64,000 nt of DNA from a bacterium (GCA_965216315.1 CBDCFN010000016.1:1600001-1664000), one strand, 5' to 3'. Positions 10,896-57,123 are shown, numbered from the stretch's first letter. Program-made: numbers and translations. Notes: generated from the sequence alone by a model not told the origin.

Positions 10896-10920
10896 CAACT
10901 TTCAGGCTCCCGCCGCGATA
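10896..10920 (+). promoter_or_regulatory. CAAC-N16-CGATA promoter-like motif (copy A)
   Basis: Same spacing as copies at 39956, 41906 and 57099; shares AAAATTAGCAACTTT with copy B. Confidence 0.65.
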
Positions 10921-10948
10921 AATTAGCTGCGTATTGGAGGTGTGTGCG

Positions 10949-11677
10949 ATGGGTGACAATCAAATCAACGCTGCGGGCTATCAATCTAACATCACTGGCA
11001 ATGAATCGTTAAGCTGGGCGGTCGCCGAAGAGACGACGATCGAGAGCTGCGAACTCGGCAAGACGTATGTCTTCCGGGATGGCGATACGCTCTGGGACAG
11101 CACTGACGGCAATGTCTCGCGTCTCAATGCCACACTCTTCTTGAATCATGAGCATGCCAGCGGAACTCTCAGGGAACGCTTGGGTATGGGGGAGACTCTA
11201 CTGGATGGAGATACCCTGTGTATCCCGAAGGCTCTCGGGGATTTTAATGACCTAATGGTAACTCAATTTTCCGCCTGGGGAGAACACGCTAACTCGACCT
11301 ACATGATTACGAGGCACAGCGTGAGCCTTTCCGGACAGGATCATGATCTCATTATTACTGTTGACCAGGTGGACGACTCATACGTCTGCGACGGAGACTT
11401 ACGCTATGAATATGACTCGCCTCATTATCGCGTTAGAATTTCCATTCAGTCTGATCATGAACAGACCTCTTTTGAGACCCGAATATCGGGTGATGGTCAT
11501 GAGGAAGTCTATAATCGAGCATTAGAACAAGTCTACTTGGCACGCATCAACGGAAAGTTACAACTCACCGGCGGCACAGGTCTTGAATTGCGTTATCCGG
11601 ATAATTTCATGCACGGGCTGAATGAGTATTACGACTACAGAGTCACAGAACCTGGGACATGCACTCTAAACTTCTGA
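10949..11677 (+). CDS. Hypothetical protein with LysM-like segment
   Basis: GGAGG RBS before ATG 10949; YVFRDGDTLW...LN...LLDGDTLCIP resembles LysM. Confidence 0.6.
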   Translation: MGDNQINAAGYQSNITGNESLSWAVAEETTIESCELGKTYVFRDGDTLWDSTDGNVSRLNATLFLNHEHASGTLRERLGMGETLLDGDTLCIPKALGDFNDLMVTQFSAWGEHANSTYMITRHSVSLSGQDHDLIITVDQVDDSYVCDGDLRYEYDSPHYRVRISIQSDHEQTSFETRISGDGHEEVYNRALEQVYLARINGKLQLTGGTGLELRYPDNFMHGLNEYYDYRVTEPGTCTLNF

Positions 11678-11713
11678 TTATTTCAGCTGAAAGATCACTT
11701 TACTAAAAAATTG

Positions 11714-11754
11714 AAAGGGCGAACCATGCGGCCAAGCCGCAGGTCCGCCCCTTC
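11714..11754. terminator. GC-rich hairpin between convergent genes
   Basis: Imperfect stem GAAGGGCG-AACC-ATGCGGC/GCCGCA-GGT-CCGCCCCTTC. Confidence 0.45.
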
Positions 11755-11769
11755 TCCCCCTAAGTAAAC

Positions 11770-13464: not shown

Positions 13465-13524
13465 GCTTGGCTCCTTTGTCGGGTGATAAACTATGGACCC
13501 ACGGTCCTTTCACGACAACAATAG

Positions 13525-13541
13525 TGCAAGCCTCGTGCCAA
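13525..13541 (-). promoter_or_regulatory. Sigma54 (-24/-12) promoter of the lipoprotein gene
   Basis: TTGGCACGAGGCTTGCA matches TGGCACG-N4-TTGC; IHF consensus AATCAATATATTA at 13568-13556 in an AT-rich tract. Confidence 0.8.
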
Positions 13542-13650
13542 AAATTTTATGGATGTAATATATTGATTTTATTAATATTCTCTTAATTGGACAGGTTAAA
13601 ATATATAAAAAATATTCATTTTTAATAAAAATTAATCTTAAAAATAGACA

Positions 13651-14079
13651 TCATGGGCCCGCTTCCGTCGTACTTTTGATCTCCCCAAACTGAGTCACGC
13701 GCCACTTGCCGGCGTGCAAGGCGACCTTGACGTAGCTTTTACGATGAAAGGCGTCGATCCCCTCGGGCTTCACCACAACCTCATAAACAAAACGCTTAGC
13801 CCCTTCAGGAGCCTCTAGCGTCTTTTTTAACTCCGCTTGGATATGGGGGCGCTTTGTATCACCGCTAATCGCTTGCCCTTCCCGCAAGGTCAGTTCCTGT
13901 TTGAGCGTTTCACAGGCCAGCCCCTCACAGTACGCCAGCGATTGTTTAATATCCGTATCCACGTAATAGGCCTGAACAAAGGCATTGGCCACCTCGACCG
14001 CATCCCGACCCATTTTGGGACCCGCCGAACAGGCCTGCGCGCAACAAAGAACCACTATCCACGCAATGAACTTACCCAT
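13651..14079 (-). CDS. Hypothetical lipoprotein
   Basis: Signal peptide MGKFIAWIVVLCCAQAC; co-oriented with HAD-IB gene. Confidence 0.7.
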   Translation of the reverse strand: MGKFIAWIVVLCCAQACSAGPKMGRDAVEVANAFVQAYYVDTDIKQSLAYCEGLACETLKQELTLREGQAISGDTKRPHIQAELKKTLEAPEGAKRFVYEVVVKPEGIDAFHRKSYVKVALHAGKWRVTQFGEIKSTTEAGP

Positions 14080-14090
14080 GGTATCCCCTG

Positions 14091-14780: not shown

Positions 14781-14802
14781 TCAATTCAATCCTTATGGAA
14801 AC

Positions 14803-15372: not shown

Positions 15373-15421
15373 TGAGCGAGGAATAGCAGCGGCTTAGCAG
15401 GATGTCAAACCTGCCCGCGGC

Positions 15422-15472
15422 AAAAAAAAGCCCCGTGAGATAGCCAAAACCGCTATCTCACGGGGCAAAAAA
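15422..15472 (-). terminator. Rho-independent terminator after the respiratory gene cluster
   Basis: 15-bp stem GCCCCGTGAGATAGC/GCTATCTCACGGGGC followed by T8 on the minus strand. Confidence 0.9.
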
Positions 15473-26013: not shown

Positions 26014-26058
26014 GTTGGACTTGGGATGGCAAGCGCGACGATTATTGAGAGGGTGTAG
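26014..26058 (+). repeat. Synonymously recoded duplicate of the thiolase last 14 codons plus stop
   Basis: Encodes VGLGMASATIIERV*, same as 25864-25908, with 9 silent nucleotide differences. Confidence 0.9.
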
Positions 26059-29000
26059 CAGCGGATCGAAGCCGTTCATAGGCCTCACTTTCGTACCAAC
26101 TCTTTAACTCTTGCGTGATGACACCGCGGATGCGATCGGCAGAGACCACCGCTGTAAAAGAGCCATCGGCCTCCGCGCGCTCTAAGGTACTCATCCACCC
26201 AATCACGGTATCAACCATTTTTTCAGCCAATATACCCGCTTCCGATTCAGGCCGCCCTTGTTCAATCAGAATATGGGTCATCTGCCGCACCGTCGCCTTG
26301 TAAAATCCAATCCCCTTCCAACCCTTGGCATCCAATACCGCTTCATAAGAAGAAGGATCCGCGTAGACCTTAATATGACCTGCATCGGCTAGCGTTTCCA
26401 GTTTACGGAGATCAACCTCAGTCCCATCTTCTAACGGAACCTTCAATTTCATCCCCAATTCTTTCGCTACCGTGACCTTCATACCGCCTAGTACTTTCTT
26501 ACGTGGGCCAGCCCAAAGATAGACAGGGGCGGGATGATTGACAATGGCCGATAACAACCGCGCCCCATTCTGACCACTACCCGCCACCGACCGCGGATCA
26601 TATCCCGACGCCGCCAAATCACCGACAATGGGCACCCAGGGAAAGTGTTGGGTCATGAACTCGATAAAGCTGGCTAAGTCACCCGCCCCGCGCGGACTCA
26701 GTGTCATCGGTGGATTCCAGTTGAGGTCCTTTCTTGTCAGCTTATTGCCATCCGCATCATAAACTTCGCGGTCAATGTACTGAATGTCGCCCGCTTCATC
26801 CCGGGGAAATTCCATGATCATCTGGGCGCCAACGCCGGCGACGGGAAAGCCGCTCATGCGTGCCATCCCGGCGATGGCATAATGATCCGTGTCAGAAATG
26901 CGATTAAAGGTCCCGGCATCAAAAAGGGCTTCCAACTCGTCGGCCACATCATAGTTGCCACTCTGGGGATCAACCGGCAGACCAAGCTCCTTTCGTTCTT
27001 GATTCACGCGCGTTACGGACGCCTCAATACGGGCATTGATGTCATTTGATCCACGCGGCGTGAAAGGTCTCACCTCTGAAACGATTTCACTCAGCTGCTC
27101 CCAGCTATAAGGTTGTGTAATATCGGGTATGGTTTGGTTGGCCGGGTCGTCCAAGCCCTTTAACACGGCAAGCAAGGCATCCACTTCCGAATGAGCGACT
27201 TGAGTCGTCAGGCCTTCGGCCTTCATGCGGTTGGCCCCGCCTAATTCGATGGTATCGAAGAAGAGTGCCTGTCCGAATATATTGTTAATCGCATCGGCTC
27301 CCGTCAGCAACATGACAGCGCCATCTAATAAGGCACGCTCCGCCGCGCTCATTTCGTCTTCCCGAAGCTCGTTGTTCGGATCGCCTCGCTGAATGCGCAT
27401 GGCACGTGCCAGGATGTAAAGGTACATCCCGATGCCAACTACGGTCACGCGATTGCGGCCGCGCCCTTTCCCTCCCAGCACCGCACTAAACGTCGGAACT
27501 TCTGCAGCCGCTCGGGCCATCGCGCCCGCAGTCAAACCCGATCCCAATAAACTTTTTTGATTCACGCCACCTTGCAACAAACTACAGGGCCGAAAATTGG
27601 ATTGACCCTCCGCTCCTTCCCAATCTCCTTTAAAGACCTCCTGCCATGACGCTGCACCCAAGGCACGAACGACGGCCTCGACCTGCTTCGCCGTCAGATA
27701 AATATCCTCGCCAGTCTCATCACTGCTCAAACGCGCAGGCTGACCCGGATGACGCGGAATCAGCGCGTGAGGCAGGGCCATTTGCGCGCCGGGAGTTTCC
27801 GCCAAATAAATCGGCGGATACCCCTGTTGCCGGGCATATTCCATCGCCAGCCAAAAAAACTTGGCACTTTCAATATCAACCGCGGCTCTTTTGGCCACAG
27901 GATGAGTTGGGTCGTTCCCAATCACCACGCAAGTGATCCCTTCCGGGTGGTTCGGAAGTTTCAATCTCACCTGAAAAGCCGCTACCCCGGTCGGATTAAG
28001 CCCAGCGGGACGCCGGCCAATCCGAAAAAGGCCTTCATCATCGATATACATCTCTCGAATCGCATCCATGTCGAGTGGCGGCGCCGGTGATCCGACATCT
28101 TCCCATAATTTTTCATAGGCCTCGGGTAAAAGCCTTTGCACACGGTCATAAACAAACACCCCACCTAGATTTTTCGCCAAAGTCCGCCGTTTATCGATTG
28201 GAGATTTATCCTCCATTTGTTCTTCGGCATCACGGTAATCATCATCCGGGCTTAAATGAATATTACCCGTACGAAGCATGCGTTCTAATACATTGCGCCG
28301 AACCAAAACCCAACGTCTTCCACTGGGTGTCTCCGCCGAGACAATATACCGTACACTGACGAGGGGTGAACCGATATCAGTATCACTTATAAAGGTCAGG
28401 GCAGTTACACGTCGTGGCGGCATTCTCTCATCTAAGCTCACTTCAAGGCGGGCCTGAATCACAAGTTGTTCTAAATCGATGCCCGCTCGATCATAGGAAG
28501 ATTCTCTCGCAAAGGCGGCCATTAATTCTTCCCAGACAGCAGGAGTTTGATACTGAACACCTTCGACATAGATTCTCATGCGTTGCCATTGAGAAACTTC
28601 ACCCGTCTCCAACTGACGGTGCAATTCCTCACTCATGCGGCGATGGCGCCTCAACAGTCCGGGCATTCGGCCGTGCTTAGACACCAAGGCATCATCCGGG
28701 GCCAGTAAATACGAAGCCATATAAAGAGATGTTTGGTCGGACTGACTGCTATGGAGACGCAAGATCAACGCCGTTTTCACCTCAAAAGGCTGCACATAAT
28801 CAATGTGCCGGTAGTTGCCCAGACGTTGCAATCCGTAGCGATGCCCAAAGGCCGGATCGATCCCGAGCAATGCGGGATCTACCGCAAATGAGCGCTCGCC
28901 GGGCAATGTAATATGGTAACCCAAGCGAAATTTTTCCTGATCATAGCGCACCCGGTTACGTAGAGTAACGTATTGAGGCCTGTTACCCCGTCCCCGATCA

Positions 29001-32000
29001 ATCACAAAAGTCAGGCGCCACACTCGATCACGAATGGAATCCCATTCCGGTGATTCAACAATACTATTAAACACGTTGTTTAAATGTGCCGCGCGGTCTT
29101 GAATAGGATCTTCTCGACTTGTCGGACCGCGCGCCATCCTGACGGATCCAGAAAAAATCTTATCCGGTACGATAATTTTTATCGTCCTATCATCGCTAAT
29201 GGTCCGGCTATCATCCTTTACTTGTGCGAGTATCGTGCGATACGCGTCTTCGAGAGTTTCCCGGTGAACAATATAATGATAGTGGCATTGGGCGTAACGT
29301 CTATCCCCTTCGACGCGCTTCATATCCTTGACAACAGCGCGACGCAGCTTCGGTGATAGCTGAACGACTTCCGGAATATCATAACCTCGCGCCTCCATCG
29401 GGCGCAGAAACTCTATTTCCGCAGCGAGGTCCTGCACTTCGGGTGTCCAGCGCGTATGCGGCCTCAAGAAGCGCAATAACCGCCCGAGCATGGGATAGGG
29501 AGATCGTGATGTAACGCGAATCAGGGCCTGGCGTTCCGGATCACCTGGATTACGCTGCGCCGCCTCTTCAAATGTCGCGATAAATTGTTGTTCGATGAAA
29601 CGTCGAAACGGACCGCGCGCCAATGGAGCCAACGCAACTAGGTCCTCGACAATCTGCGCCATCGTTCGTGCACTATCTGCATCATAGCGCGGCAAAGCGA
29701 GCACAAAGCCCTCCGCTTTATCTCCCTGGACATAAAGTCGACGTCTCTGTTGTGACTCCAGCACCCCAACCCGCATACCCGCTGTATCGTGGCTTAAAAA
29801 ATGTCCTTCGAGAAGATGTCGTGACCCAAGAGGAAGCTGTCGTGGTTGAAAGGATACCGACTCGACTCGGCGACCACTGTAGTCGAGTAGTTGCAAATGG
29901 AGATTGCGATTTTCTTTCGCGGCACGTTCGACCTTGAGATGGAATAAAAGAGGTACGCTCGCATCCTGCTCTCCATCAAGCCCGCGCCACAAGGGAAACA
30001 AAGTCGCAACCGGCTGCCCATGCTCATACAAGACGACATTATCAATATTAATACGCCCATCGACTTCCGTGATGACAGGCCATACCTCAAACTTCTTGCG
30101 CAAAGCCCGTATGCCGAAAAGTCGATGCCAACGGCCCCGCTGACTCGCTAAAGCATGTGCAAGAGGTCCCGAAGCGATTGAGTCATCTCCACGTAAGAGC
30201 CGTTGATATAATGCAACAGCGCCATCGTCACCGTCTATGACGGTCAAGACCGTATTCCTGAAGCCACTCTGTTCCGGACTCACGACAAACCGATTATCCT
30301 CGTCCGCCCTCGGCGGAAAGCGCTCCATAAGTCCTGCACGTTGGTGGCCCTGTTCTAATAAAACCGGAATCGTTCTGATCAGAGCCAAGCGCTCCGGATC
30401 CAGCAGCGCCCTAAGCTCAGCATCTTGATGAAACGTCTCAAAACGTTGGGGGACAGATTCGGGAAGATTATCCGGTAGCTGCGTCACCCAATCATCATAT
30501 AGTTTGCTTTGCCTGAATGAATCGATCTGACTGAGTGTTCCGCGTAAAGTCACTGCATCGTTGGCATCAACGTCTCGCAACGTCTCATGGAAACGCCACG
30601 GTTTCAGGGCAAAAACCCAGCGTAACAGATGACGCCAAACATATTTGAGGCCCTCTCGTTCTTGCCGACTGGTAGAATTCTGATACTCCTTATCTATTGC
30701 CATCATCTCGGTGACGACATGTGGCAGGGCTTGCACGAGCGCCGCAAGAGCTTGAGGCGTGTGCTCGCGTTGCGCTCGTTCAACGATGCCCACAAGACGG
30801 GTTCGATTGAGTCCCCTCTCCAGGAGAGCCGGCATATCCACTCCCCAACGAACGTGGCTTCGTACCATACGTTCTGCGGCACTACTGCGGCCACTCCGAA
30901 ATGGCGTTGTTGTACCGCGACGATGCGTCAGCCACATAAAACTGATCGGATAAGTCAGGCCATCGAGCTCTGCATAGAGTTCTTTTGAAAACACCCCACC
31001 CTGCGCTTGGTTTGCTTCAGTAATCCGCTGCATGACGTCTTGCTGAACCGCTGCAGCGACGACAGCGCGAATCAACGAATTAACTTCACTGAACTGATGC
31101 GGTGGCTGAAAAAATTCACTCAAACGTCGTTCATGGAGTTGTAAGACTTGGGCATCCCAACGAAAGCTAACGGCGGGTCGAGCTTCCATCTTAATCGGCT
31201 CATCGCGCGAATCTATTGTCATCAATTCTGTGTAAAGGGCCTTCCCCTCCCAAATGATCTGAAGCGTCATCTCTCCAAGATCATCACAATCTGGAGCTGA
31301 TAACGCACGACCGTAATGCGACCACTCAGCAACGAACTCTGGCCAGGCCATTGCTTTCAATTGCTCAACATCATTCTTCGCGATAAGCCCTCTAAGATAG
31401 CGTTGGACCGCGTGAGCGGCATAGAGACGCACCAATAAATCGCAGCGAGTGACCTGTTTGGGTAATTGAAAGAAGAGCTTGAGGCGCTCTTGGCCAAGAG
31501 GATGCGGTCCAAAGTCATAGGGGCCGAGTCGCGGCAACAGGTGGTCTCCATTGAGCCATGTGTCGGCACCCTGAGTGAGGCGAACAACATAACTCTCTTC
31601 AGCCTCACTTGACCCTGTCTCTGCAGCGATTTCCGGATAGATAAAGGAAGGAACAATCGCACGTCGGGCTCGTGCGAGCTGACCGATAATAGCAACATAT
31701 GTTTTCCCATACTGCGGTGATGTTTCAGCCTGAACCAGCTGAATTGATAAAGCGCTCGCCTCCCGCGCCGCAGCGCGAACCGTGTCGACATCAATAGCAC
31801 GGTCGATACATCCTAATTGTAAGTTAACGAGCGGTAAGAGCTGTCGATTAAATTCATTGGCTTGAGTTATCGAGAAGGACTCACCGTGGAGGAGTGATTC
31901 GGCACGATCAAGGCGGGCGATGAGTTGCGGTCGATGAAGTGTAGCGAGACTCGCACTCGCTAGTTGAAGCGAACCTGATGACAGCCCCTGCAAAGCCTGA

Positions 32001-35100: not shown

Positions 35101-38100
35101 TTATAGGCACTACGCGGTTTGACGTAACCCTCTGGTTTACCCAAGGGCTTGACCGCTTTCATCTTCAGTCCTGTACCGCCGGGATTGCGAATCCGAAATA
35201 GCATATCTTGAAAAGGTTGATCTTCGGACGGTCGCCACCGCATCAAGCGCACGTTCGTTTCTTCGATCTGCATGCCGCGGATGCGCGGCGCAAGCCGCGC
35301 AATTGCACGCTTCATCTGGTCCGGAGTGGCCGTCACTTCGGCCCGTATCAACATATGGATGCGGTGTGCCGCCCAACCCTCTTGAGACTCGGACCGAATC
35401 GAGTGAATTGCCTGTCCAAAGGCCAAATCAATTTCGGGATAGCGCAGCGTTCCATTCCCATCACTTTGGGGGGACAAATGGCGGACAATCGAATAGGCAA
35501 AGAGCCGACGATCGGGTTTTTTCTTCTTCCCCGATGGATCTTTTTCAGTCAACTTAAAGAGGTGATTCCATTCCCACGGTGTCTGCGAGCGTTCCACCTC
35601 CCAATGTCGCCGCAATCGCCAGAGCTCTAATTGAGCCGCCCGATAGGGGTGAATCCCTCTAAAGAGTACGTCTTCAACAAACATCCCCTGGCGTTCCAAG
35701 TCAGGTCGATACGTCAGATAGAACGTTCCCGCTTCACCCATGACAAAGGTCAACGTAATCCGCTTAATTTGGCGATTGGGATCGACAAAGCCAATCAGCG
35801 AAGGAATACGCTCTGCAAGCCGCTCAATATCTCTCATGTCGCCGGTCAATTCCGGAATAATAAGCTCCAGCGTATTGTCGACCGTCTCCTGGGCACCCAG
35901 ATCGGTCGCTCCACGGTGAAAATCTTCCAGGCTCTTGATCCCCCGCTTGATTAAGTTTTTGATTCCATTCTGTCCCAAGGGATCACGGCCGGCAGAGAGA
36001 CCAACCACCGCACGCCTGACCCCGGATTCCTGATCCTTAAAAATCCCGAAAGAATAAAGATCCTGTTCTTTCACATTCAAAGTATGCGCTTCGATGTTGT
36101 GACGATCGCCATAGAGCCGCTGAAAACGGATCGCCGCGGCGATTTCGGCTGCCTCCGCATCATTTCCAAGGATGTGATCGATAATTCCTAAAATCGTAGC
36201 ATCTGCCAGCGACGAAACTTCCTTAATCACTCCCCGCCGTTCAGCGGAGCCCGCCCGGAATCCTTTGGCTTTTTTGATAAGCTCAGCAACTCGTTGGTCG
36301 GCATCGTCACGACTGACCTTGCCTAACTCCGATTCGTTGAGTGTAAAAAGGAGCCCTTGAGCGGCATGCGTCAGCTTTACGACATCACGGTCGAGATGAT
36401 TGAATTTTTCTAATGTCGCCACGAGTTTGCCTTGAGGCCCTCTCAAGGCACCCGCGTCCCACAAGGACTGCAACCAATCGAATACCCGCAGCATTAACAT
36501 CTGGCGAATTTTCGTTTCTTCGCGGGCGATCCGCATTCTGACTAAGGCACGGTCAAGGCCTTCCGAGGGTTCATCGATGGAACTCACGCCGTGGTGGCTC
36601 AAGGCCTGAGACAAAATGGCTCCAAAAGCAGGATCGGAGACCTGACGCGTTTGAATAAAATCATCAAATTGATCGAATAATGAGCGCTTCTCAACGCTTC
36701 CCCTTAAGGCATGGCGCTGAAACAACATCTCAACGTCAATGAAGGCATCGAGAATCTTAACCGCTTCTTCAGCGATGAGTTCATCTCCAACGTCTTGATT
36801 GACCGCATGTCCTAAAGCGTCGAAAATTCCCTGGGCATAGGGGCTTAATTCATCTTGCCGCTCGAAACCCTTAGGAACGGAGGTATAGAGTCGCTGCAAC
36901 GGATCATAGTTGAGACTGGCATCGCGCAATAAAGCCGTCATCTCCCGGTAGCTTTCAGGAAAGTTGCCTACAATGTTTACGATGCCTGCCGCAAAATCTT
37001 CTGTTCCCGGAGCTACGTGAAAGAGTTGCTGCACTTCCGTCTCTCCCGTCGGCCTGAATTCAAGCTGAGGGGCCTCAGGAGGAGGACGATCATCCGGTTC
37101 CTTGATGCGGACGAGTAATTTGCCTTGGAGCACGGCAGCATTTTCAGAAACCAAGTATTCTTCGAGTATGCCGGGGACCTGCGCCTTCAGCGGTTGTTCG
37201 ATCTTCATAACCTCTAGAACGGCAATAACATCACCCACGTTGACAACATCACCCGGCTTTTTCTCATACCGAAGTACGGTTCCATTTTGGGTCGCGCGCA
37301 CTTCTCCGACAGGAGGATTATCGACAGTAAACGCGACTCCATTGACAGAAATTGGATAAGCGCCTTGTTTCTCCGATCCAATGATGGGAACGCGCTTGCC
37401 ATCAATCGTCATGTTAAACTCGGAACCGCTGGGCCCCTTCGTCTCCAAGTCAACTGTGTAGTCGCGACCATTAATACTCACTAAATAGTCGCCTGACCTT
37501 TCACTGACAGAAAGCCTATATTCGCGGCCAAACAGGGCAAATACAAATTCCGCTTCTTTGCGGGGCGGCAACTTCGGCAGACGTCCCTTGCGCAAGGTCG
37601 CAAGCACACCATTATCATATGCACTGCGCTGTTTACGGTAGGCGAGAATCGCCGCAGCCACGAGTGCTTCATGAGAGTACTGTTTGACTTCCCAAGGCTT
37701 GCGCATCGGCATGTAGTGGTCCTGGAGCCATTTATTTGAATAGGCAATGTCACCAAATACCTGATGTCCCATCACCTCGATGGCAAAGCCACGCATCGTG
37801 CGCACGCCGTCAACGGCGAGATCCGTCAAGCCACGCATGGTGACCGCGCGCGCTGAATTGCGGTCGCGACCTTTTCCGATCAATTTAAGGAGCGTCGGAT
37901 CATATCCCGCGGTAATGACATCTCCCTGACGTACCGCGACGTCGGCACGTATGCCTTTGCCCGTGGGCGGCCGAAACAATTTAAGGGTTCCACTGGTTGC
38001 GGCAAACTCCTCATCGGCATCCTGGGCATAGATGCGCACCTCAAAGGCCGTTCCTCTGGGTTCCGGAGTCGATTTCACGGACAAACGATAGCCTTCCGCA

Positions 38101-39887
38101 ACCCGAATCTGTTCTTTCACCATATCAACGCCGGTAACTTCTTCGGTAATCGTGTGTTCGACTTGGAGGCGGGCATTGATCTCCATCGGATAAAAGTCCA
38201 TCCCGTCATAGAGACCTTCAAAGGTCGCAGCCCCGATGTAATCCGCTTCATGGAGCACGCGGACCGCATGTTGATGCATGCCTTGACGTTGACCGTTAGG
38301 AATATTCGGCGCCGGCGCCTCTTCGATGATCTTCTTGTTCTTCCATTGAATGGAACAGTCACGATCACCGACGGCAACACAATTGCCATGTTGATCTCGA
38401 ATCAGCTGAATCTCAACATGCCGCGGTGCAATGAGTTTGTTGACATAAACCGAGGCATCATCGTCATTGTCGATGGCTTTACGTTGGATATATTCGAAGG
38501 CCTGCATGAACTCGCGACGATCATAAAGAAAGACGATATGTTCATGTGGATTGTCGCTGGCTTTTAGCTGCTCTTCCGATAAATGGGACAGCACCAGCGG
38601 ATAACCTAGTTCATTCGCAACCGCCTCACCCTGTGACTGTGTCGCCACTTTATGCCACGGCTCATCCGACGGTCTCGGCAAGATAGCCTTTTCGATAAAG
38701 ACGGTGGGATTACCAAAGGCACGCAGTGCTCCCGCCTGTGCCTTTGAAAAGGCATCTCTCAACTCCGCTTCGTTGTGCACAAAGTAGATTCCTTCACCAC
38801 CGCCTCCCGCTGTGGCCTTAATCACGACAGGATATCCCAACCGCTCTGCAACCTGAATTGCCTGCTCAAGCGTATCCGCCTCACCCCAGGTTAATTGATC
38901 CGGATCGGCCAGCCGTTTGAAACCAATCTTATCACCAACTAATTCCATCGCCGACTTGCGAGGGCCGAGAAAGCGAGAGCCAAGCTCAGTCACCAACGCC
39001 GAAAGCTCCGGATTCTCCGAGGCAAAGCCCCAACCGGGCCACACTCCGATGTCGTTAGCCGAAAGCCCTTCCGCCTCCGCTTGTCTAATCACCTGCTCCA
39101 AGGCTTCGCGCAGGATGACATCAACATCGTTGTAGGCAAGGAGCTTCTTGGTCTTATCGGGATCATCATCCGTCGGATCCGGCACATCGCGACTATCCGG
39201 CACAAGTATCGCTTGATCCGCGTCGACCACAAACGGAGCCCCGGCATCCGCCTGCGTATACATGACGATCACTTCGATTTTTTCACCGCGTTCACGTTCC
39301 AACTCACGAACCGCGGTAATCAGACGCGAAGCCGCCTCACCCCGATTGGGTACAAAGATCTTCCGTAAATGACTTACCTCCGGCTCAACCGTTTCACCCG
39401 GGTCCGCATTCAACTGAACCGCCGCTATGACATTAAGTGGAGCCGGCTCGCCCACAACTGCCGACGTGCCAGCCATTGCAGACGTATCGACGACTGTATG
39501 ACTCCCGGCAAGGGCTTCCGGAGACAAAGCCGCCCTCATTTCCATTAACTTCTCTTCAATGAGCTGTTGAAGTAGGGGTGATTGATCGGATGCCTTCCCT
39601 TCTGTCGCCAGTTCATGCCCATGGTCGAGTACTTCTATCGCTCGAGCGCGAATGACAGCCGCATCAGTTTCTGGATGGAGCTGATCCGCTGTCAGCGAAG
39701 TCAACGGTTGAAGATGGCCGCGGAATGTATCTAAGCCGCGTTGCAAATAAGGATCATCTTGCAGAAGCGTTTGTGTCGACTGAATGTTGTTGAGTATTTG
39801 CGGCTCTTGAAGAACACCGGAGGCCGCTAAGATTCCGGTAGAAGTGAGCGACAATGAGGAGGTCGCTCCGATGGTAAATAGACCCAT
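32121..39887 (-). CDS. 2588-aa single-chain acyl-CoA carboxylase (N-domain-BC-BCCP-central-CT) fused to C-terminal BirA-type biotin ligase
   Basis: NRGEAA, PGWGFASEN, KATAGGGG, RDCSIQ, EINARLQVEH (BC); EVMKIE (biotin Lys ~37204); CT motifs ANLSGFDGSPES, YHGGAYVVFS; BirA STND, QKAGRGR, KWPND, KLAGILIE, GIGLN. Confidence 0.9.
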   Translation of the reverse strand: MGLFTIGATSSLSLTSTGILAASGVLQEPQILNNIQSTQTLLQDDPYLQRGLDTFRGHLQPLTSLTADQLHPETDAAVIRARAIEVLDHGHELATEGKASDQSPLLQQLIEEKLMEMRAALSPEALAGSHTVVDTSAMAGTSAVVGEPAPLNVIAAVQLNADPGETVEPEVSHLRKIFVPNRGEAASRLITAVRELERERGEKIEVIVMYTQADAGAPFVVDADQAILVPDSRDVPDPTDDDPDKTKKLLAYNDVDVILREALEQVIRQAEAEGLSANDIGVWPGWGFASENPELSALVTELGSRFLGPRKSAMELVGDKIGFKRLADPDQLTWGEADTLEQAIQVAERLGYPVVIKATAGGGGEGIYFVHNEAELRDAFSKAQAGALRAFGNPTVFIEKAILPRPSDEPWHKVATQSQGEAVANELGYPLVLSHLSEEQLKASDNPHEHIVFLYDRREFMQAFEYIQRKAIDNDDDASVYVNKLIAPRHVEIQLIRDQHGNCVAVGDRDCSIQWKNKKIIEEAPAPNIPNGQRQGMHQHAVRVLHEADYIGAATFEGLYDGMDFYPMEINARLQVEHTITEEVTGVDMVKEQIRVAEGYRLSVKSTPEPRGTAFEVRIYAQDADEEFAATSGTLKLFRPPTGKGIRADVAVRQGDVITAGYDPTLLKLIGKGRDRNSARAVTMRGLTDLAVDGVRTMRGFAIEVMGHQVFGDIAYSNKWLQDHYMPMRKPWEVKQYSHEALVAAAILAYRKQRSAYDNGVLATLRKGRLPKLPPRKEAEFVFALFGREYRLSVSERSGDYLVSINGRDYTVDLETKGPSGSEFNMTIDGKRVPIIGSEKQGAYPISVNGVAFTVDNPPVGEVRATQNGTVLRYEKKPGDVVNVGDVIAVLEVMKIEQPLKAQVPGILEEYLVSENAAVLQGKLLVRIKEPDDRPPPEAPQLEFRPTGETEVQQLFHVAPGTEDFAAGIVNIVGNFPESYREMTALLRDASLNYDPLQRLYTSVPKGFERQDELSPYAQGIFDALGHAVNQDVGDELIAEEAVKILDAFIDVEMLFQRHALRGSVEKRSLFDQFDDFIQTRQVSDPAFGAILSQALSHHGVSSIDEPSEGLDRALVRMRIAREETKIRQMLMLRVFDWLQSLWDAGALRGPQGKLVATLEKFNHLDRDVVKLTHAAQGLLFTLNESELGKVSRDDADQRVAELIKKAKGFRAGSAERRGVIKEVSSLADATILGIIDHILGNDAEAAEIAAAIRFQRLYGDRHNIEAHTLNVKEQDLYSFGIFKDQESGVRRAVVGLSAGRDPLGQNGIKNLIKRGIKSLEDFHRGATDLGAQETVDNTLELIIPELTGDMRDIERLAERIPSLIGFVDPNRQIKRITLTFVMGEAGTFYLTYRPDLERQGMFVEDVLFRGIHPYRAAQLELWRLRRHWEVERSQTPWEWNHLFKLTEKDPSGKKKKPDRRLFAYSIVRHLSPQSDGNGTLRYPEIDLAFGQAIHSIRSESQEGWAAHRIHMLIRAEVTATPDQMKRAIARLAPRIRGMQIEETNVRLMRWRPSEDQPFQDMLFRIRNPGGTGLKMKAVKPLGKPEGYVKPRSAYKMRVARNEGLGLVEAYQYVQDLTADEGYGRGEFHELDIENPRLIKDEQTGEHRATYDLIEVNRERGNNTGKVVFGELKRPTQRHPEGIRIMQIVNDATYGLCPLQEPECARIIAAIDYAEKHGLEIDWKATSSGAGISMDKGVENLDWTALVMRRLGEFCDAGGVVNILVDGGNIGAQSYWDANATMEMTRRGVLIKAANSYTALTGNRAQMISGSVGAEDNLGLAGAERVTGPIGETQFYVETISEGRRLLWQHHDLTWHAPGQILVDQWETSDHHGRDVTKYRYVDPALTDKSAEEVLAEQAARAAEKEQLEKALEALELQAESDEGISSADATEMGKILNRLEELASIPTITVYDIGEILADKEKKKPFPVAAVMASIRDQDAPVLQRWHLWKKGGADLIRVEETAIGGIPTTMIGIDAQSLPREGEIPPGYPDSWSGSTLFPEGSKKVARAINAASGRTDLVVVANLSGFDGSPESLMNNQLEWGTAIEEAVRNYKGKLAFLVTTRYHGGAYVVFSRVINDNATVGAVDNTFASVIGGNIATKLIFPRKINAAAEELLKTDSSWQLRLQKVTSPQDIEKIRRAARDEVEESFRLEYDGIHTVDKAVAVGAIHEVVPANQIRPWYIRNLNEGREVYRAQVDAQIDVWLNSFTTFAAMGDAGVEQWEKAVKSMGLGPFILTRRQDTPRSESPERPVPRAVAVDKPLVESPRPVKDADSIDIDAIKTLGEGFRSLDLGIAAGRIGRSIFAFESVGSTNDVAKALLDQNVMLGTVVIADQQKAGRGRTGNTWVSRKGAGIYMSVAIRPSVEKNVIPKMTFATAAAVARAVGAISDSQPTIKWPNDIYLRDAKLAGILIEQHGDGAFVVGIGLNTNATVEDLSGIGKPATSLAIDTGKSWDQAMVLKRLLEALESEMQRLNEGGWPDIVSYVRGRSYLKDKRVHIMNGDEITASGIVRDVSPDGSLLLEAKGKIEVITSGTVELDRASRPPERK

Positions 39888-39955
39888 GCCTGAAAACCCC
39901 AGACCTTTCGAATGTAACGATCCTCCCCATGAGGAGGCCCTCGACGCAGTTCTTT

Positions 39956-39980
39956 GTTCGGACTCAAGGGGTAAAAGTTG
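39956..39980 (-). promoter_or_regulatory. CAAC-N16-CGAAC promoter-like motif (copy B)
   Basis: Same spacing as other copies; IHF consensus TATCAATTAGTTA at 40032-40020. Confidence 0.65.
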
Positions 39981-40049
39981 CTAATTTTTTCGAAATCGAA
40001 ACGGCGAAGATAGTAAGTTTAACTAATTGATATAATTAAATTTATGCTG

Positions 40050-41882
40050 CTATTCGGTCACGATGTTGTCGAGGCGGTCGAGGGCCTTGATGACAACCTC
40101 CCGCAAGATCGCATTGTGGGCCTTATAGGGGGCCCGCGGGACGCTCCGCAAGAACACGATGCGGGCGGGTGCCAATCCCTTGACCCCGGGCCCGGCAACA
40201 TTTTCCATATGTCTGAGCAGCTCAACCTCGGTATACCGAGCCCCCCGGGCGAGCACAACGGCAGCGACAACCATTTCTCCCAGTTTCTTGTCCGGGATTC
40301 CAACGACGTGACAATCCTGAATTCCCGACATCCCACGCATATGATTTTCAATCGTCCGTGGAAAGACGGCCTGGCCATTGGTCACGATCTTTTCGATCGA
40401 GCGCCCAAGTACCGTAAGGAAGCCGTCCTCATCCAACTTACCGAAGTCATCGCCCTCACGGAATCGCCCATCGGTCAGTGCGTTCTTGACGTAGATCGTC
40501 CCGACTTGACCCGGACCCAGGATCGTACCGCCCTGGTCGCGAATCTGAATCTCAACTCCCGGTGCGGGGCGCCCCACGGTCTCTTTATGGGCGAGTAATT
40601 GATCCGGTCTAAGGACGGTTACCAAACCAAATTCCGTCGTCGCATAATTTTCCCAGATGATGGGCCCGAACACGCCGACAGCAAGCTCCTTCAATGAAGG
40701 ATGAAACGGAGCCGCTCCGACGTAAATGGCCCGCAACGAATCAAGTTTATAATCGTGGTGAGAATCGGCAACAAACATACACAAGCTTTTCAACCAATGC
40801 GGCGAGGTCCAAAAGTTGGTGAGTTGATGGTTATCAATCAAATCTAAAGTCGCTTCCGGATCAAAGGCGAGGCTCGGGGTTTCATCGAGCATCACCATTG
40901 CCCCGCGATTGAGATGTCCCTTCGCCCAGGAGTGCGCACCGCCATGATAGAGTTGGCCCACAACGAGGTTTTTGTCTCTTTCAGTAATTTGAAACAGGCG
41001 GTTCGCCTTGCGTCCGACGTTCGCATCGCGCTTAACACGGACTAGCTTGGGCTCACCGGTCGTTCCCGAACTCATCATCACGGGACCCGGATACTCAGGC
41101 GCAACCATATCCGCACTCGCGGCTGGCGGTCGTTTAAATTCTTTAATGATACTTCGGTAGTGAAGAACGTTCGGATACTTGTTATCAATGTCGACCACAA
41201 TCGTTCCCATCGCCTCAAGCAAGGGAAGATAGAGTTCGATATGCAGTAAACTTTCATGATCGAGAAACAACACGCGATACGGCTGAGCCCGTAGTTTCTC
41301 CATGATCTGATCGCGTGATAGATAAGAATGAAAATTGGTGTACGCCACACCGGCACGCTTGGCTCCAATATTGATCGAGAAATGTTCAACGCGATTCCGA
41401 CTGAAGAAGATGGCGACTTGTTGATCATCCGAGTCACGACAACCCGCAATGAAGCGACCGAGGATATCCGCATGGGCGTCCAACGTCCCATAGGTTAACC
41501 CTTCCGTGCCTTGTCGCACTGCCACACGCTGTCCCCAACTAAAGGCATTTTGCGCAATCGGATCGGTTCGATTGATCGGACCCGGCGTCATCCGACTCGT
41601 CAGGTCGCTCAATACACCACGAATTTGCTCGCGGGTCGGTATGCTGAGCAGCGTCGGCAACGTATAACTCCCTAAAAAGGGATGGACTATCTGGGACTCG
41701 TGACCGCGCCAGTAGAGATCCTGGACGTCTTCCCAGATTTCTCCGTCGGTGAGCTGATCATCCGAGTGCATGTGCCGTTCGATTTGCGCAAGCTCCTCCG
41801 TAAAGGCCGCGACGTTGAAAGTCCCGCGGCTGGCACAGAGCATAGGGGCAACCATGAGCTGGGTCGCCAAATTGGATGACAT
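40050..41882 (-). CDS. Divergent AMP-binding acyl-CoA synthetase with ~100-aa N-terminal extension
   Basis: SSGTTGEPK, YATTE, TVGRP, LDEDGFL.V.GR; start moved to MSSNL (41882) because the upstream ATG lies inside the promoter motif. Confidence 0.8.
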   Translation of the reverse strand: MSSNLATQLMVAPMLCASRGTFNVAAFTEELAQIERHMHSDDQLTDGEIWEDVQDLYWRGHESQIVHPFLGSYTLPTLLSIPTREQIRGVLSDLTSRMTPGPINRTDPIAQNAFSWGQRVAVRQGTEGLTYGTLDAHADILGRFIAGCRDSDDQQVAIFFSRNRVEHFSINIGAKRAGVAYTNFHSYLSRDQIMEKLRAQPYRVLFLDHESLLHIELYLPLLEAMGTIVVDIDNKYPNVLHYRSIIKEFKRPPAASADMVAPEYPGPVMMSSGTTGEPKLVRVKRDANVGRKANRLFQITERDKNLVVGQLYHGGAHSWAKGHLNRGAMVMLDETPSLAFDPEATLDLIDNHQLTNFWTSPHWLKSLCMFVADSHHDYKLDSLRAIYVGAAPFHPSLKELAVGVFGPIIWENYATTEFGLVTVLRPDQLLAHKETVGRPAPGVEIQIRDQGGTILGPGQVGTIYVKNALTDGRFREGDDFGKLDEDGFLTVLGRSIEKIVTNGQAVFPRTIENHMRGMSGIQDCHVVGIPDKKLGEMVVAAVVLARGARYTEVELLRHMENVAGPGVKGLAPARIVFLRSVPRAPYKAHNAILREVVIKALDRLDNIVTE

Positions 41883-41905
41883 GAGACCTGTAAACACAGT
41901 GGGCT

Positions 41906-41930
41906 CATCGCACATTTTCGGAAAAAGTTG
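41906..41930 (-). promoter_or_regulatory. CAAC-N16-CGATG promoter-like motif (copy C)
   Basis: CAACTTTTTCCGAAAATGTGCGATG, 23 nt before ATG 41882. Confidence 0.6.
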
Positions 41931-42032
41931 TTTATTTCTTAGGGGTTATCTTCGAATCCTTGCGAAAGAATCGCCGGTTGAGGCTTCGCGATAGATCTGC
42001 TAAGGACTCGATTCACATAAGGAGCTAAGTTC

Positions 42033-52682: not shown

Positions 52683-52689
52683 AGCCTCA

Positions 52690-53115: not shown

Positions 53116-53139
53116 AATCGCGACATGAATTCCACATCC

Positions 53140-53231
53140 GTCCCATAATGAGACTTAGTCGTCTCATTCTTAGACGCTTCACGCGCTATCATTAAGTAAA
53201 TAAAGCATTTTTTCTTGGTCTCCAATTTGCA
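53140..53231 (+). promoter_or_regulatory. Putative sigma54 promoter with tandem enhancer sites
   Basis: GTCCCATAATGAGAC (53140) and GTCTCATTCTTAGAC (53161) palindromes; TTGG-N10-GC at 53215-53230. Confidence 0.55.
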
Positions 53232-53243
53232 TTACTTCATTAT

Positions 53244-54215: not shown

Positions 54216-54259
54216 CCTCGAAACCTGTATAAACACTCTTCAATGAATGGGGCTCAATC

Positions 54260-55261
54260 GTGACCGATACCTTTGGAAAGATAAATAACCTCTGCCTCGT
54301 CGTCCTGGCTGGAGTCGCAATAACGGTCGGCCTGATTTTCACTCGAAGCATACTTGTTCCCTTTGTTATCTCGATATTTATCTACGCCCTGCTTTCGCCA
54401 GCGCTGCATTGGCAACAAAACACGCTCCGCTTACCGCGTGTTCTCGCTATTTTATTAACCGCCTTTCTATTTCTTCTGTTCGCTACGATCATCTTCTATC
54501 TCGTCTCTTCATCCCTCAACAGCTTCATGATGAGTGCGGATGTCTATCGAGATAAAATTATAGCCTTCATCCAAGAGCTAGGCGGATTTGCCAGCAAGTG
54601 GGGCATTAAACTAGACAGTAAAGCGATCCAAGGCGCTATCGATAAAATTCCCGTGCTTACGATGGCCCAAAATATTACCGGCAGTGCCGTCTCTCTTGTC
54701 GGCAACACAATGCTGGTAATCGTCTTCGTCCTCTTTATGATCACTGGAGATGGAACACAACGTCAGCAGAACCAGTTAATGGTGGAAATTCAAGGCAAGG
54801 TGTCTCGCTATGTCGCCACAAAATTTCTCGTCTCGCTCGCGACAGGCATCCTCGTCGGAGCGGTGCTCGGCGGATTCGGCGTCGAGTTGACCTTGATGTT
54901 TGCGGTCTTAACGGTCTTATTTAATTTCATTCCTAACATCGGCTCTGTCATGGCAACGTTACTCCCCCTACCCGTCTTACTCCTTCAGTTTGGCCTTGGC
55001 TGGCAAACACCTGTCGTTATTAGTCTTCTCGCCATCATTCAGTTCAGCATAGGCAATATTCTCGAACCCAAAGTCATGGGGGAAAGCCTGGATCTGCATC
55101 CCGTTGCTATCCTCCTCTTCCTGATGTTTTGGGGTCTTGTCTGGGGCCTAGCGGGGATGTTTTTGGCTGTTCCAATTACGGCAATTCTAAAAATTATCAT
55201 GAGTCGCATTCAAACGACCAAACCGGTCGCCGAATTGCTAGCGGGCCGGCTTCCGGCCTAG
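54260..55261 (+). CDS. AI-2E family transporter
   Basis: NFIPNIGS, GNILEPKVMG..LDLHP, GMFLAVP. Confidence 0.92.
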   Translation: MTDTFGKINNLCLVVLAGVAITVGLIFTRSILVPFVISIFIYALLSPALHWQQNTLRLPRVLAILLTAFLFLLFATIIFYLVSSSLNSFMMSADVYRDKIIAFIQELGGFASKWGIKLDSKAIQGAIDKIPVLTMAQNITGSAVSLVGNTMLVIVFVLFMITGDGTQRQQNQLMVEIQGKVSRYVATKFLVSLATGILVGAVLGGFGVELTLMFAVLTVLFNFIPNIGSVMATLLPLPVLLLQFGLGWQTPVVISLLAIIQFSIGNILEPKVMGESLDLHPVAILLFLMFWGLVWGLAGMFLAVPITAILKIIMSRIQTTKPVAELLAGRLPA

Positions 55262-55273
55262 GAGGCATCAACT

Positions 55274-57070
55274 CTAACCGAGTAAATCACCGGATGAAAA
55301 CTCGAAATCCGCTTCTGGAATATAAAGCGTAAACACACTTCCCTCATCAAGCGCACTTTCCACGGTAATGAATCCCTTCGATTCATTCACGATACTTTGA
55401 ACAATAGCGAGACCAAAACCGCGACGATTTTCTTCGAGAGTCGGATCATTGTGGCTGGATACTCTGAACTCGAAGATATTGAGCAGCTTATCCTGCTCAA
55501 TTCCATGGCCGGTGTCACTAAAGTCTATCCGGACATACCGCCCCGCCCTAATATTGTGTCTGTTAAGCCGATGCTTAGGCATATTTCGCATCGCCTCGCG
55601 GTCAAGTTCAAGGCTCTGCACGCTTATTTCCAAGTATCGCTCACTTGACTCCCTCATCGCATCAATCGCATTCTGAACCAGAGCTCTTATCGCCTCTCTA
55701 AAACGACTCGGATCGACTTCGACCATCGGAGCCGGTGAGTTAACCTTGACCTTCATCTGCACACGATCATCCGTGAGCAAATCTTGCAGCGCCTCTTCAG
55801 AAATCAATTCAGCAACCTGAAAGCGATAAGCGTCACCCGCGCCGCTACTCATGCTACGCAGGCTTTCTATTTTACGAGCGGTCTCTTCAACGGTTTCTTG
55901 AGGGAGAAGCAACTGTGGAATCAGCATATCAATGATGGCTATGAGCAGTGCTTTTGCCGTCGTTGCCCTTTCCATGCGCTCTTGAGGTGCTGCTTGGGCA
56001 AACCGTGCAATTCTCTGGGCTGCCGCATTGAGCGCCACAGCAAGCTCGTCTTCACCAACTTTTATCACTAAATCTCGAAGCATTTGGAGCAAACGCCGCG
56101 GTTTTTGGACCTGCATAGAAATTTTCTGGTTTGAATTCTGGACATCATGGGCAATTCCCGCGGCGACCTCTCCAAGTATTTGCAAGACGCGCCACCTCGC
56201 GCTCCGCTTCTTCTCTTTTAATTTGTTCAGTCAAATCATCGTATGACCGACGCATGGCTGCCATCGCTTTTTTGCTTTTACTCCGGTCAATACAAAAATA
56301 GATCCCGAAATTATTGCCTGTTATCATGCGCGCGTAGAGATCCACCGAAACATAAGAACCATCACTCTCTAAGCAACCGTATATCGTTCACGTAAACTCC
56401 AGATGTCATGATATCACTGAGCACGGATCCCAAAGCGACCTAAGTCCTCGGGGTGAATATTTTTCATAAAATCTCTGTCGGTTAGCTCTGCCTCCGTGAA
56501 GCCTGAGATCCGTTCGTTAGCTTGGTTGCACATCATCAGGCCGACACCCTCGGGCCCAATGACAAAGGCACCCGCCGCGACACTCAGGCTTTCAATCATA
56601 GCGCGAAGTGGCAATACGATCTCATCATGGGTCTCAACTTCAATGATTTCAGGTTCGACCGGCAATTGGTTGACGTCGACGCGTATCATCGAAGGCTGAG
56701 AGGGCCGCCGTTTAAAGCTTCGACTCGTCGGCGGCGTTGTGGAATGCAGTGGACTCACACCCTGTCCAATCAAATCCGTTAATTCTTGGAATTTGGTGTA
56801 ATCAAAGTTGTCTGCAAGGGTCGACGCGGCCGCCCCAAGGGCCATAAAAACTCTTTGCCTTAATTCCGGAGTTTCCTCCGTCTGAGCCGCACTGGCTAAG
56901 GCCGGCGCCAGAATCTGAACCGGTTCGGCCAACAAGACGGCACTGCTCAAACGATCCCAATTGTTTCGCAAACCCTCTGTCGCCTGGCTAATCGATTGCC
57001 CCGCCTGCAACCCCGTCGTGGCTTGGAGCAGATTACTGACCAGTAAATTGTATGTCGAAATGTGAGACAC
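55274..57070 (-). pseudogene. PAS-HisKA-HATPase sensor kinase with N-terminal extension, broken by three frameshifts (real or assembly artefact)
   Basis: PAS IHPED...R..DGS, H-box AHDVQN, NAIDA, DTGHGI, GFGL spread over ORFs 56414-57070, 56145-56345 and 55274-56185. Confidence 0.8.
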
Positions 57071-57098
57071 CGCTATTTACCCTGACCCTTGCGGATCT

Positions 57099-57123
57099 CA
57101 TCGGAGCAAGCTCGAAAATGTTG
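57099..57123 (-). promoter_or_regulatory. CAAC-N16-CGATG promoter-like motif (copy D)
   Basis: CAACATTTTCGAGCTTGCTCCGATG, 28 nt before GTG 57070. Confidence 0.62.

Follow-up and report, generated by a model that had tools for sequence, protein, structure and literature searches.

A candidate sigma-28-type promoter class, a recurrent uncharged N-terminal leader and their possible tie to a non-flagellar type III secretion system

We analysed a stretch of 64,000 nucleotides from the genome of an uncultured bacterium (G000:C16:1600001-1664000; hereafter the window), in which four copies of a bipartite element, CAAC-N16-CGAW, stand in front of an orphan open reading frame (ORF), a giant carboxylase, an acyl-CoA synthetase-type enzyme and a histidine kinase (Table 1). 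The genome comprises 2.96 Mb in 16 contigs and was rated 98% complete. The four sites, put forward in an earlier reading of the window (the original prediction), all exist, and AAAATTAGCAACTTT is common to two of them, as had been stated. This element, the sigma factor that would read it and an uncharged N-terminal leader found on many of the proteins encoded behind it are the subject of our analysis.

Table 1. Features in the window and related loci elsewhere in the genome
Feature	Coordinates	Strand	Description
Promoter	10895..10921	+	Motif 10896-10919, 22.0 bits; -35 GCAACTTT, -10 CGCGATAA
Orphan ORF	10934/10950-11677	+	Behind the 10895..10921 promoter, which would drive it; no leader
1991-aa protein	26042..32017	-	Adjoins the carboxylase downstream; leader-like uncharged N-terminus 32017-31934
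Giant carboxylase	32121..39887	-	2588 aa; leader 39887-39807, 27 uncharged residues, MGLFTIGATSSLSLTSTGILAASGVLQE; leader profile 21.1 bits
Promoter	39955..39981	-	Motif 39957-39980, 18.5 bits
Acyl-CoA synthetase-type AMP-binding enzyme	40050..41897	-	Pfam; leader 41897-41829, leader profile 16.5 bits
Promoter	41905..41931	-	Motif 41907-41930, 23.7 bits
PAS/HATPase histidine kinase	55274..57070	-	31-residue uncharged leader 57070-56978; HATPase_c on 55274-56185
Promoter	57098..57124	-	Motif 57100-57123, 22.7 bits
ECF sigma	59626-60144		One of two in the genome
FliA-like sigma	C16:350511-351410		299 aa; best family FliA_WhiG TIGR02479
162-aa ORF	L089:9408-9896 (G000:C16:351407-351895)		Overlaps the stop of the FliA-like sigma gene by 4 nt
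SctU/FlhB	C16:805026-806048		Outside the secretion cluster
3856-aa protein	G000:C15:370001-381571 (L108:1-11571)		Acyltransferase and MaoC dehydratase domains; leader and strong promoter
Orphan run	G000:C16:2159181-2196937 (L153, L154)		38 kb

The orphan ORF had been described as LysM-like, a label we drop because no Pfam family was found in 10934-11677. The other three genes carry the leader, which is absent from this first one. The carboxylase is a single-chain acetyl/acyl-CoA carboxylase (BC-BCCP-central-CT) that also contains a biotin protein ligase, as judged from its Pfam domains. The extra N-terminal residues claimed for the enzymes were confirmed: Biotin_carb_N begins at residue 174 of the carboxylase, leaving about 170 additional residues, and the AMP-binding domain of the acyl-CoA synthetase begins at residue 116-122, leaving about 110. 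The proposed distance of 23-28 nt between site and start codon depends on the start that is chosen. The measured gaps are 14 nt (TTG 10934) or 30 nt (ATG 10950, behind GGAGG) for the orphan ORF, 69 nt for the carboxylase, 9 nt past CGAT (GTG 41897) or 24 nt (ATG 41882) for the acyl-CoA synthetase and 29 nt (GTG 57070) for the kinase. Since GTG 41897 is so close to the motif, the acyl-CoA synthetase mRNA may be leaderless.

Many bacteria have single-chain carboxylases of about 1860 aa, and the biotin-ligase fusion was seen only in a few of the best hits (P0002-P0004). Residue 410 of the window protein aligns to residue 149 of an ordinary 1863-aa single-chain carboxylase. A relative with 93% identity (P0001) retains the leader, and the N-terminus of P0003 is similar. 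A search of genome contigs for loci related to the giant carboxylase found no relative, and the first 700 residues, compared with 30 related genomes, gave ordinary biotin carboxylase matches only and no full-length orthologue. The adjoining 1991-aa protein has no Pfam family. Its N-terminus is a weaker form of the leader (profile 8.8 bits), and since its best upstream promoter score is 3.4 bits, that is, it has no promoter of its own, the gene is probably co-transcribed with the carboxylase. An Atlas feature search, which we treat as a lead only, pointed from the 1991-aa protein to acetyl-CoA carboxylase central/carboxyltransferase clusters (0.86). Possibly it is a second, very divergent giant of the carboxylase kind, in line with the word "pair" used in the original prediction.

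In the window, the bare pattern CAAC-N16-CGAW occurs 11 times, at the four named sites and at seven more, with 5.75 expected. As 2 of 100 shuffles reached 11, the pattern is weakly above chance in the window alone. Genome-wide it was found 532 times with the 16-nt gap and 221-351 times with other spacings. The longer form CAACTTT-N13-CGAW was found 67 times, while every other gap from 6 to 23 gave 2-9 occurrences in the spacing scan. These 67 sites yield the consensus (A/C)GCAACTTT(T/C)-N10-G-n-CGA(T/A)AA, or in compact form GCAACTTT-N11-GnCGATAA, with a G at -1, then CAACTTT and then G-n-CGA-T/A-A-A.

A weight matrix was built by iteration on the genome itself, and the reversed genome served as control. 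At a threshold of at least 18 bits the matrix finds 187 sites in the genome and 6 in the control, which sets the motif well above background. The numbers are 264 against 13 at 16 bits or more and 465 against 83 at 13 bits or more. Among 516 matrix-selected sites the -10 bases are C in 479, G in 459, A in 513 and T or A in 304 and 160; A/G and then A follow CGAT/A, and a G stands two bases upstream in 290. The four named sites are the sole ones in the window with at least 18 bits, and five other matrix matches there score 13.2-14.4 bits and are mostly intragenic. Four strong sites per 64 kb is the genome average (187 in 2.96 Mb). What had been taken for a regulon of four orphan genes is instead a set of about 190 strong sites, up to about 380 above control, spread over the genome at ordinary density; overall, there are some 200-400 promoters.

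Gene calls and start choices came from a simple home-made caller, the start being the first in-frame start past the promoter. By these calls the 465 hits divide into 287 upstream of a gene, 77 at the 5' edge of an over-long ORF, 100 internal ones and 1 unassigned. A start codon is found 7-13 nt past CGAW in 92 of the 364 sites that have a downstream start. A sigma-28 promoter is expected to initiate transcription at this distance, which would make many of these mRNAs leaderless. Enrichment of the motif over the reversed control was seen in all 31 related genomes.

The E. coli sigma-28 consensus is TAAAGTTT-N11-GCCGATAA, and the architecture of our motif matches it in part. A sigma-28-type -10 element (GCCGATAA-like) is present, and the 11-nt spacer between the 8-mers and the trailing TTT agree with TAAAGTTT. 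The TAAAG core does not agree: the canonical -35 TAAA(G) is absent from the motif, in which the -35 reads (A/C)GCAACTTT, with GCAAC in place of TAAAG. With the -10 element and the spacing both matching, the idea of an alternative-sigma promoter has held up, and the four window sites are very probably promoters of the sigma-28 kind.

The 7-mers TTGCGAA/TTCGCAA were found within -35 to +22 of 28 of the 187 strong promoters, where about 2 are expected, with favoured offsets of -14, -4 and +5/+6. Two copies of TTTGCGAA lie directly upstream of the first window promoter (10866-10895, +). The 7-mers are probably an operator overlying a subset of the promoters. Two genes for DUF4423 regulators are among the members of the regulon.

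We counted a gene as marked when a site lies within 150 nt of its start. There are 253 such genes at 13 bits or more, 136 of them at 18 bits or more, and all of the latter were annotated with Pfam (E <=1e-5). A family was found in 46 of these strongly marked genes and none in 90; at the same threshold, 34 of the 41 window genes without a strong site have one. The signalling proteins of the regulon include hybrid histidine kinases, response regulators, GGDEF and RelA/SpoT proteins, a Ser/Thr kinase and, as giants, two adenylate cyclase-AAA-TPR proteins. Further members are a patatin, a diacylglycerol kinase, a GNAT protein, an Exo_endo_phos enzyme and surface proteins with LamG and TSP3. PFK, GDH, malic enzyme, a class-V aminotransferase, cysteine dioxygenase and RtcB stand for metabolism, next to the carboxylase and the acyl-CoA synthetase of the window. 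The 3856-aa protein, which may be a type I fatty-acid-synthase-like enzyme, also belongs here, and its orthologue in G001 retains the leader. Ordinary genes such as UvrA, PanD and Ddl are present as well, and no ribosomal protein or RNA polymerase gene is among the 46 with a Pfam family.

Since the sites are so numerous, they could be the housekeeping promoters of the primary sigma in this lineage, and TTGACA-N17-TATAAT was neither enriched nor spacing-peaked in a crude scan, which is a weak test. However, no motif site was found within 200 nt of any of the 45 tRNA genes and the single 16S locus scores 4.1 bits at best, which argues against a housekeeping role; the apparatus operons of the secretion system described below are free of sites too. 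Orphans make up 90 of the 136 strongly marked genes and 7 of the 41 unmarked window genes. In addition, RpoD is conventional (587 aa) and 53-67% identical to RpoD of other former Deltaproteobacteria. We therefore regard a housekeeping promoter as very unlikely.

Five genes of the sigma-70 family are present in the genome: RpoD, a second sigma which, reading its sequence by eye, we take to be RpoH-like, two extracytoplasmic function (ECF) sigmas and a FliA-like sigma. Many ECF promoters carry AAC in the -35 and CGA in the -10. The motif has both, one of the ECF genes lies in the window, and the AAC had been read in this way in the original prediction. The phyletic distribution does not bear this out. 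Homologues of the two ECF sigmas occur in 13 and 19 of the 31 relatives, whereas all 31 show enrichment of the motif, even where both homologues are missing (G004, 78 sites against 5 in the control; G012, 81 against 4). Moreover, there is no site of at least 13 bits upstream of the window ECF operon, and both the extended -10 (GnCGATAA) and the spacer of 11 nt agree with sigma-28. It is thus extremely improbable that either ECF sigma reads the motif.

The FliA-like sigma contains Pfam regions 2 and 4 and aligns to WhiG and FliA entries of the PDB over residues 49-264 without a break in coverage. WhiG of Streptomyces (PDB 6pfj, 6pfv, 7lq4) is its best match among solved structures (E 3.6e-24). 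An orthologue with 52-81% identity was found in all 31 relatives, which makes the FliA-like protein the sole alternative sigma common to all of them. Across the phylum, which comprises one class only, it is present in 80 of 81 sampled genomes, and the lone miss is a 73%-complete genome. The shared distribution of protein and motif suggests that the motif is probably read by this divergent sigma of the FliA/WhiG family (sigma-28-type). Like WhiG, it would be a FliA-family sigma used for development and not for flagella; unlike WhiG, it belongs to another phylum and is linked to type III secretion.

Flagellin is found in only 3 of the 31 relatives, and the domains Flagellin_N, Flagellin_C and Flg_bbr_C (rod/hook C-terminal) were not found in the 98%-complete source genome. 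The three flagellated relatives have a second sigma that adjoins a second FHIPEP and is 26-32% identical to the FliA-like sigma. The FliA-like sigma is therefore a separate paralogue and not the flagellar FliA. Neither type of sigma-28 site was found in about 200 nt upstream of the 10 flagellin-family genes of these relatives (0/10). A FliA-type sigma and a type III export system had both been named as things to look for, and both are in the genome, although the sigma is a distinct paralogue in a lineage mostly without flagellin. None of the outcomes that the original prediction had named as refuting it was encountered.

The FliA-like sigma gene lies inside the cluster of a non-flagellar type III secretion system (T3SS). 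The cluster encodes FHIPEP/SctV, two FHA/YscD-like proteins, SctJ, SctL, the ATPase, YscO/FliJ-like, FliK/HpaP-like and FliM-like proteins, FliN/SctQ, a FliO-like protein, SctR, SctS and SctT. SctV scores 806 bits (NCBIfam cut-off 692), and the FlhA model gives the same protein 698 bits, below its cut-off of 772. SctN (620 bits, cut-off 605) and the SctR subfamily (227, cut-off 179) also pass, while SctS, T, L, Q and J match NCBIfam below the cut-offs. Judged from these matches, together with SctU, encoded elsewhere in the genome, the core export apparatus of a non-flagellar T3SS (SctV, R, S, T, U, N, L, Q, J) is present. FHIPEP was found in all 31 relatives, and in 14 of them it lies on one contig with the sigma gene within 18 kb. 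No site of at least 13 bits was found inside the T3SS apparatus operons or before the sigma gene. The two genes directly past sctT have sites of 22.7 and 23.1 bits, and the first of them has an uncharged N-terminus of 39 residues. Motif-free apparatus and sigma genes with marked genes past sctT correspond to a late gene class controlled by a sigma that is tied to the machine. We found no published work relevant to the T3SS in this lineage.

The 162-aa ORF that overlaps the sigma stop is kept after the sigma gene in four of five loci of relatives. It was considered as a candidate anti-sigma factor and matches neither FlgM nor another family. Its C-terminus may resemble proteins of the T3SS rod/needle type.

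In E. coli and Salmonella, FliA and FlgM set up a class 2/class 3 hierarchy in which the late genes carry the promoter of the sigma. The arrangement here is alike in that this promoter is missing from the genes for the export apparatus and for the sigma itself and present before the late genes. It differs in that there is no flagellum, a FlgM-like anti-sigma was not found and the late class runs to hundreds of genes.

The promoter class itself is not new, since large non-flagellar sigma-28 regulons are known from Bdellovibrio. In the attack phase of Bdellovibrio bacteriovorus HD100, TTAAG-N16-CCGATA was found in 92 of 140 mapped promoters (Karunker et al. 2013, PMC3627812). Going by the part of that report available to us, the FliA regulon of Bdellovibrio is similar in its sigma-28-type promoter, in being a large and mostly non-flagellar set and in its many uncharacterised proteins, and the -10 of our motif matches CCGATA (PMC3627812). 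There, however, the sigma is the flagellar FliA in a flagellated cell, while here flagellin was not found and the paralogue sits in a T3SS cluster; the -35 here is GCAAC, and half of the products share an N-terminal leader. In Chlamydia trachomatis, sigma-28 controls late genes (PMC12282069, PMC10597470), which likewise combines sigma-28 with a T3SS and a developmental late class in a non-flagellated cell. The available parts of these two papers do not mention a shared leader motif or a sigma gene embedded in the T3SS locus.

In 72 of the 136 strongly marked genes at least the first 19 residues of the product are free of D, E, K and R. The same holds for 162 of all 2422 genes, taken from the longest start and including the regulon, so uncharged N-termini are enriched among marked genes, and what the original prediction remarked on a few enzymes extends to the whole genome. 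Residues 2-25 of the 72 leaders consist of 16.5% L, 15.8% A, 14.6% S, 10.2% T and 7.2% G, with 1.4% charged residues (K+R 0.8%), and the maximal mean hydropathy over 15 residues has a median of 1.24. By composition and hydropathy the leaders lack Sec, Tat or lipoprotein character, in agreement with the original prediction: these values do not fit a basic n-region, a strongly hydrophobic core, an RR motif or a lipobox. Conventional signals in the same gene list, read by eye, start with K/R and a hydrophobic run.

Alignment of 48 leaders, the kinase among these best members of the leader profile, revealed a core, hydrophobic-L-A-[S/A]-[S/T], that recurs about 14-20 residues from the start. Its codons include all six for Leu, all four for Ala and both Ser families. 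Since synonymous codons vary freely, the core is conserved as a peptide and not as DNA or RNA, and this also rules out that the LLASS core is a DNA/RNA palindrome. A crude leader pattern set against the strong promoter gave counts of 40 and 89 against 95 and 2198 (odds ratio 10.4). A profile from the 72 leaders found 81 ORFs with at least 10 bits and 5 in the reversed control, and 14 of the 26 hits that were not seeds have a promoter of at least 13 bits, with a baseline of about 10% of genes. The 72 leader proteins are not one paralogue family, as 53 are singletons by full-length BLAST and only two pairs are alike in the first 160 residues. An origin of the leader from flagellin N-termini was considered and found no support, as the profile reaches at most 9.1 bits on the 10 flagellin-family N-termini of the flagellated relatives.

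Could the leader be an artefact of wrong start codons, with untranslated 5' sequence read in frame? The starts were indeed set by the first-in-frame-start rule. Against this, the core shows the full synonymous codon variety and is kept in orthologues of other genomes (P0001, L202). The start lies 7-13 nt past CGAW, the spacing of a leaderless transcript, in 39 of the 72 leader genes and in 14 of the 64 other marked genes, and the leader is also found behind 5' leaders of 69-92 nt. An artefact of this kind is hardly probable, and we are fairly confident that the leader is a real targeting signal acting at the peptide level.

In the leader enzymes the catalytic domain starts at residue 79 in PFK, 85 in the aminotransferase, 86 in GDH, 116 in the acyl-CoA synthetase, 146 in cysteine dioxygenase, 174 in the carboxylase and about 200 in the kinase and the cyclases. 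Copies without the extension are found elsewhere in the genome: two AccC-like proteins (501 and 588 aa), a BirA of 266 aa and second genes for PFK, GDH, malic enzyme, the aminotransferase and RtcB, the ordinary copies being 23-35% identical. Hop effectors of Pseudomonas syringae follow three N-terminal rules: the first 50 residues are rich in Ser, position 3 or 4 is aliphatic or Pro, and the first 12 residues contain no acidic one. All three hold in 34 of the 72 leader proteins and in 177 of 2286 other genes. Unlike Hop signals, which are not known to have a conserved core, the leaders share hydrophobic-L-A-[S/A]-[S/T].

Taken as a whole, we give about an even chance to a T3SS-coupled sigma regulon in which the leader serves as a signal for export or targeting. 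As in the flagellar hierarchy, the T3SS machine and its sigma would be made first, and the FliA-like sigma would then turn on the late gene class. The leader, together with an extension of 50-170 residues, would route the products to the T3SS: orphans, signalling enzymes, the second and divergent metabolic copies and the carboxylase fused to a biotin ligase. They would end up in a prey or host cell, and export into such a cell is what we infer from the sequences. That the T3SS is the route of the leader proteins we put at a little under even. Co-regulation, the position of marked genes past sctT, the N-terminal composition and the failure to find another injection system (neither a T6SS sheath nor VirB4 was found in the genome) point indirectly to this route. 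The kinds of enzyme, which would resemble known effector activities, the duplicate copies and the fusion of carboxylase and biotin ligase are consistent with it. The fullest version, in which an uncultured phylum of small-genome bacteria turned a duplicated flagellar sigma into the master switch of a non-flagellar T3SS and, in the family of the source genome, about 100 proteins are injected into other cells by means of a conserved N-terminal signal, seems to us rather unlikely.

Several observations weigh against this T3SS-coupled reading. The matrix scores are partly circular, as the matrix was trained on the genome that it scores, although the spacing test is not; the gene starts depend on our own caller. 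The FliA-like sigma reaches 133 bits on TIGR02479, for which the cut-off is 189.6, though this is its best-scoring family, and Pfam region 3 (PF04539) was detected only in RpoD. Sigma and T3SS genes are on different contigs in 17 of the 31 relatives, including assemblies of 3 and 8 contigs. No secretin is encoded in the T3SS cluster, the two secretin-domain genes of the genome lying at other places. A needle and a translocon were not identified either, and the small conserved ORFs of the cluster match no family. With E <=1, the leader profile gave 24 hits in the source genome (seeds), 2 and 1 in two genomes of the same family and 0-2 weak ones in each of the other 28. A small sample of 19 promoter-proximal ORFs was read by eye in a genome from a different family; the core was not seen, and at least 19 uncharged residues were present in 4 of them. 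To our knowledge, known T3SS signals have no conserved motif, and histidine kinases, response regulators and enzymes of 2500-3900 residues are unusual T3SS cargo.

The hits in the same family are convincing: one has a promoter with the start 11 nt past CGAT, and one is the orthologue of the 3856-aa protein. In the small sample from G001 and G003, 1 of 12 promoter-proximal ORFs is leader-like. The leader core thus seems specific to the family of the source genome, while promoter, sigma and T3SS are phylum-wide. A T3SS signal would then need to have a clade-specific sequence, which adds to the points against the T3SS route.

With promoter and sigma read in the same way, the leader could also be a tag that acts inside the bacterium, for localisation, for association with the membrane or a pole or for timed turnover, in a developmental phase like the attack phase of Bdellovibrio. 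The bearers are often signalling proteins of the cell's own type (hybrid kinases, response regulators, GGDEF, RelA/SpoT, cyclases), enzymes of 2588 and 3856 aa are awkward as cargo, and a family-restricted core in a lineage with a phylum-wide T3SS is more easily understood in this way. The Bdellovibrio sigma-28 regulon is, in the part of the report at hand, a general life-cycle programme (PMC3627812). On the other side, tag-free ordinary copies of the same enzymes exist, and the carboxylase has its own biotin ligase despite a stand-alone one, which fits work outside the own cytoplasm. Genes for known compartment shells (encapsulin, microcompartment shell) were not found in the genome, and the hydropathy of the leader is modest, at the median given above. 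We consider an intracellular tag possible but doubtful.

If T3SS export through the leader is true, the injected set would comprise PFK, GDH, malic enzyme, a self-biotinylating acetyl-CoA carboxylase, a giant like type I fatty-acid synthase and makers of bacterial second messengers. Among T3SS export signals the leader would be the first to carry a recognisable motif, and the effectors would be aimed at rewiring the metabolism of the target cell. What is new on the side of regulation is a phylum-conserved sigma-28 paralogue with a changed -35 specificity that is physically tied to a non-flagellar T3SS, an example of how flagellar regulatory logic may persist through the origin of injectisomes. 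The promoter provides a simple sequence handle with which late or secreted genes can be listed in any genome of the phylum. Also new is a motif-bearing leader on about 70-100 unrelated proteins, among them duplicated enzymes of central metabolism. It would be a novel type of export signal or else a novel tag for targeting within the cell, and the set hints at a lifestyle of manipulating other cells.

The kinase frame of the window needs two compensating frameshifts near 56186-56413, which bound about 200 nt in a three-frame translation; the middle part, in which the PAS domain ends, reads through in a different frame. Either a pair of assembly indels or decay of the gene may lie behind this. 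On contig C10 (8.8 kb), at about position 7355, there is a near-identical second copy of the promoter region of the acyl-CoA synthetase, which may reflect strain variation or an assembly duplicate.

Motif-free genes of the window include two tandem squalene/phytoene synthase genes (8950-10847, +), an H+-pyrophosphatase (42496-44502, +) and a type III polyketide synthase followed by a methyltransferase of the ICMT family (57281-58875, +). Genome-wide, the most strand-biased 6-mers upstream of 910 motif-free genes are TGGCAC, TGGCAT, TTGGCA and CTTGCT, which are words of the sigma-54 type.

The 38-kb orphan run listed in Table 1 holds 16 genes for proteins of 265-1131 aa, each with its own strong promoter. 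A Pfam family was found in one of them only (FHA). Several of the N-termini share a Cys motif, M-G/T-C-D-L-Y-G-A-S ... G-L-C-R-A-N-P-G-T-A-Y-G.

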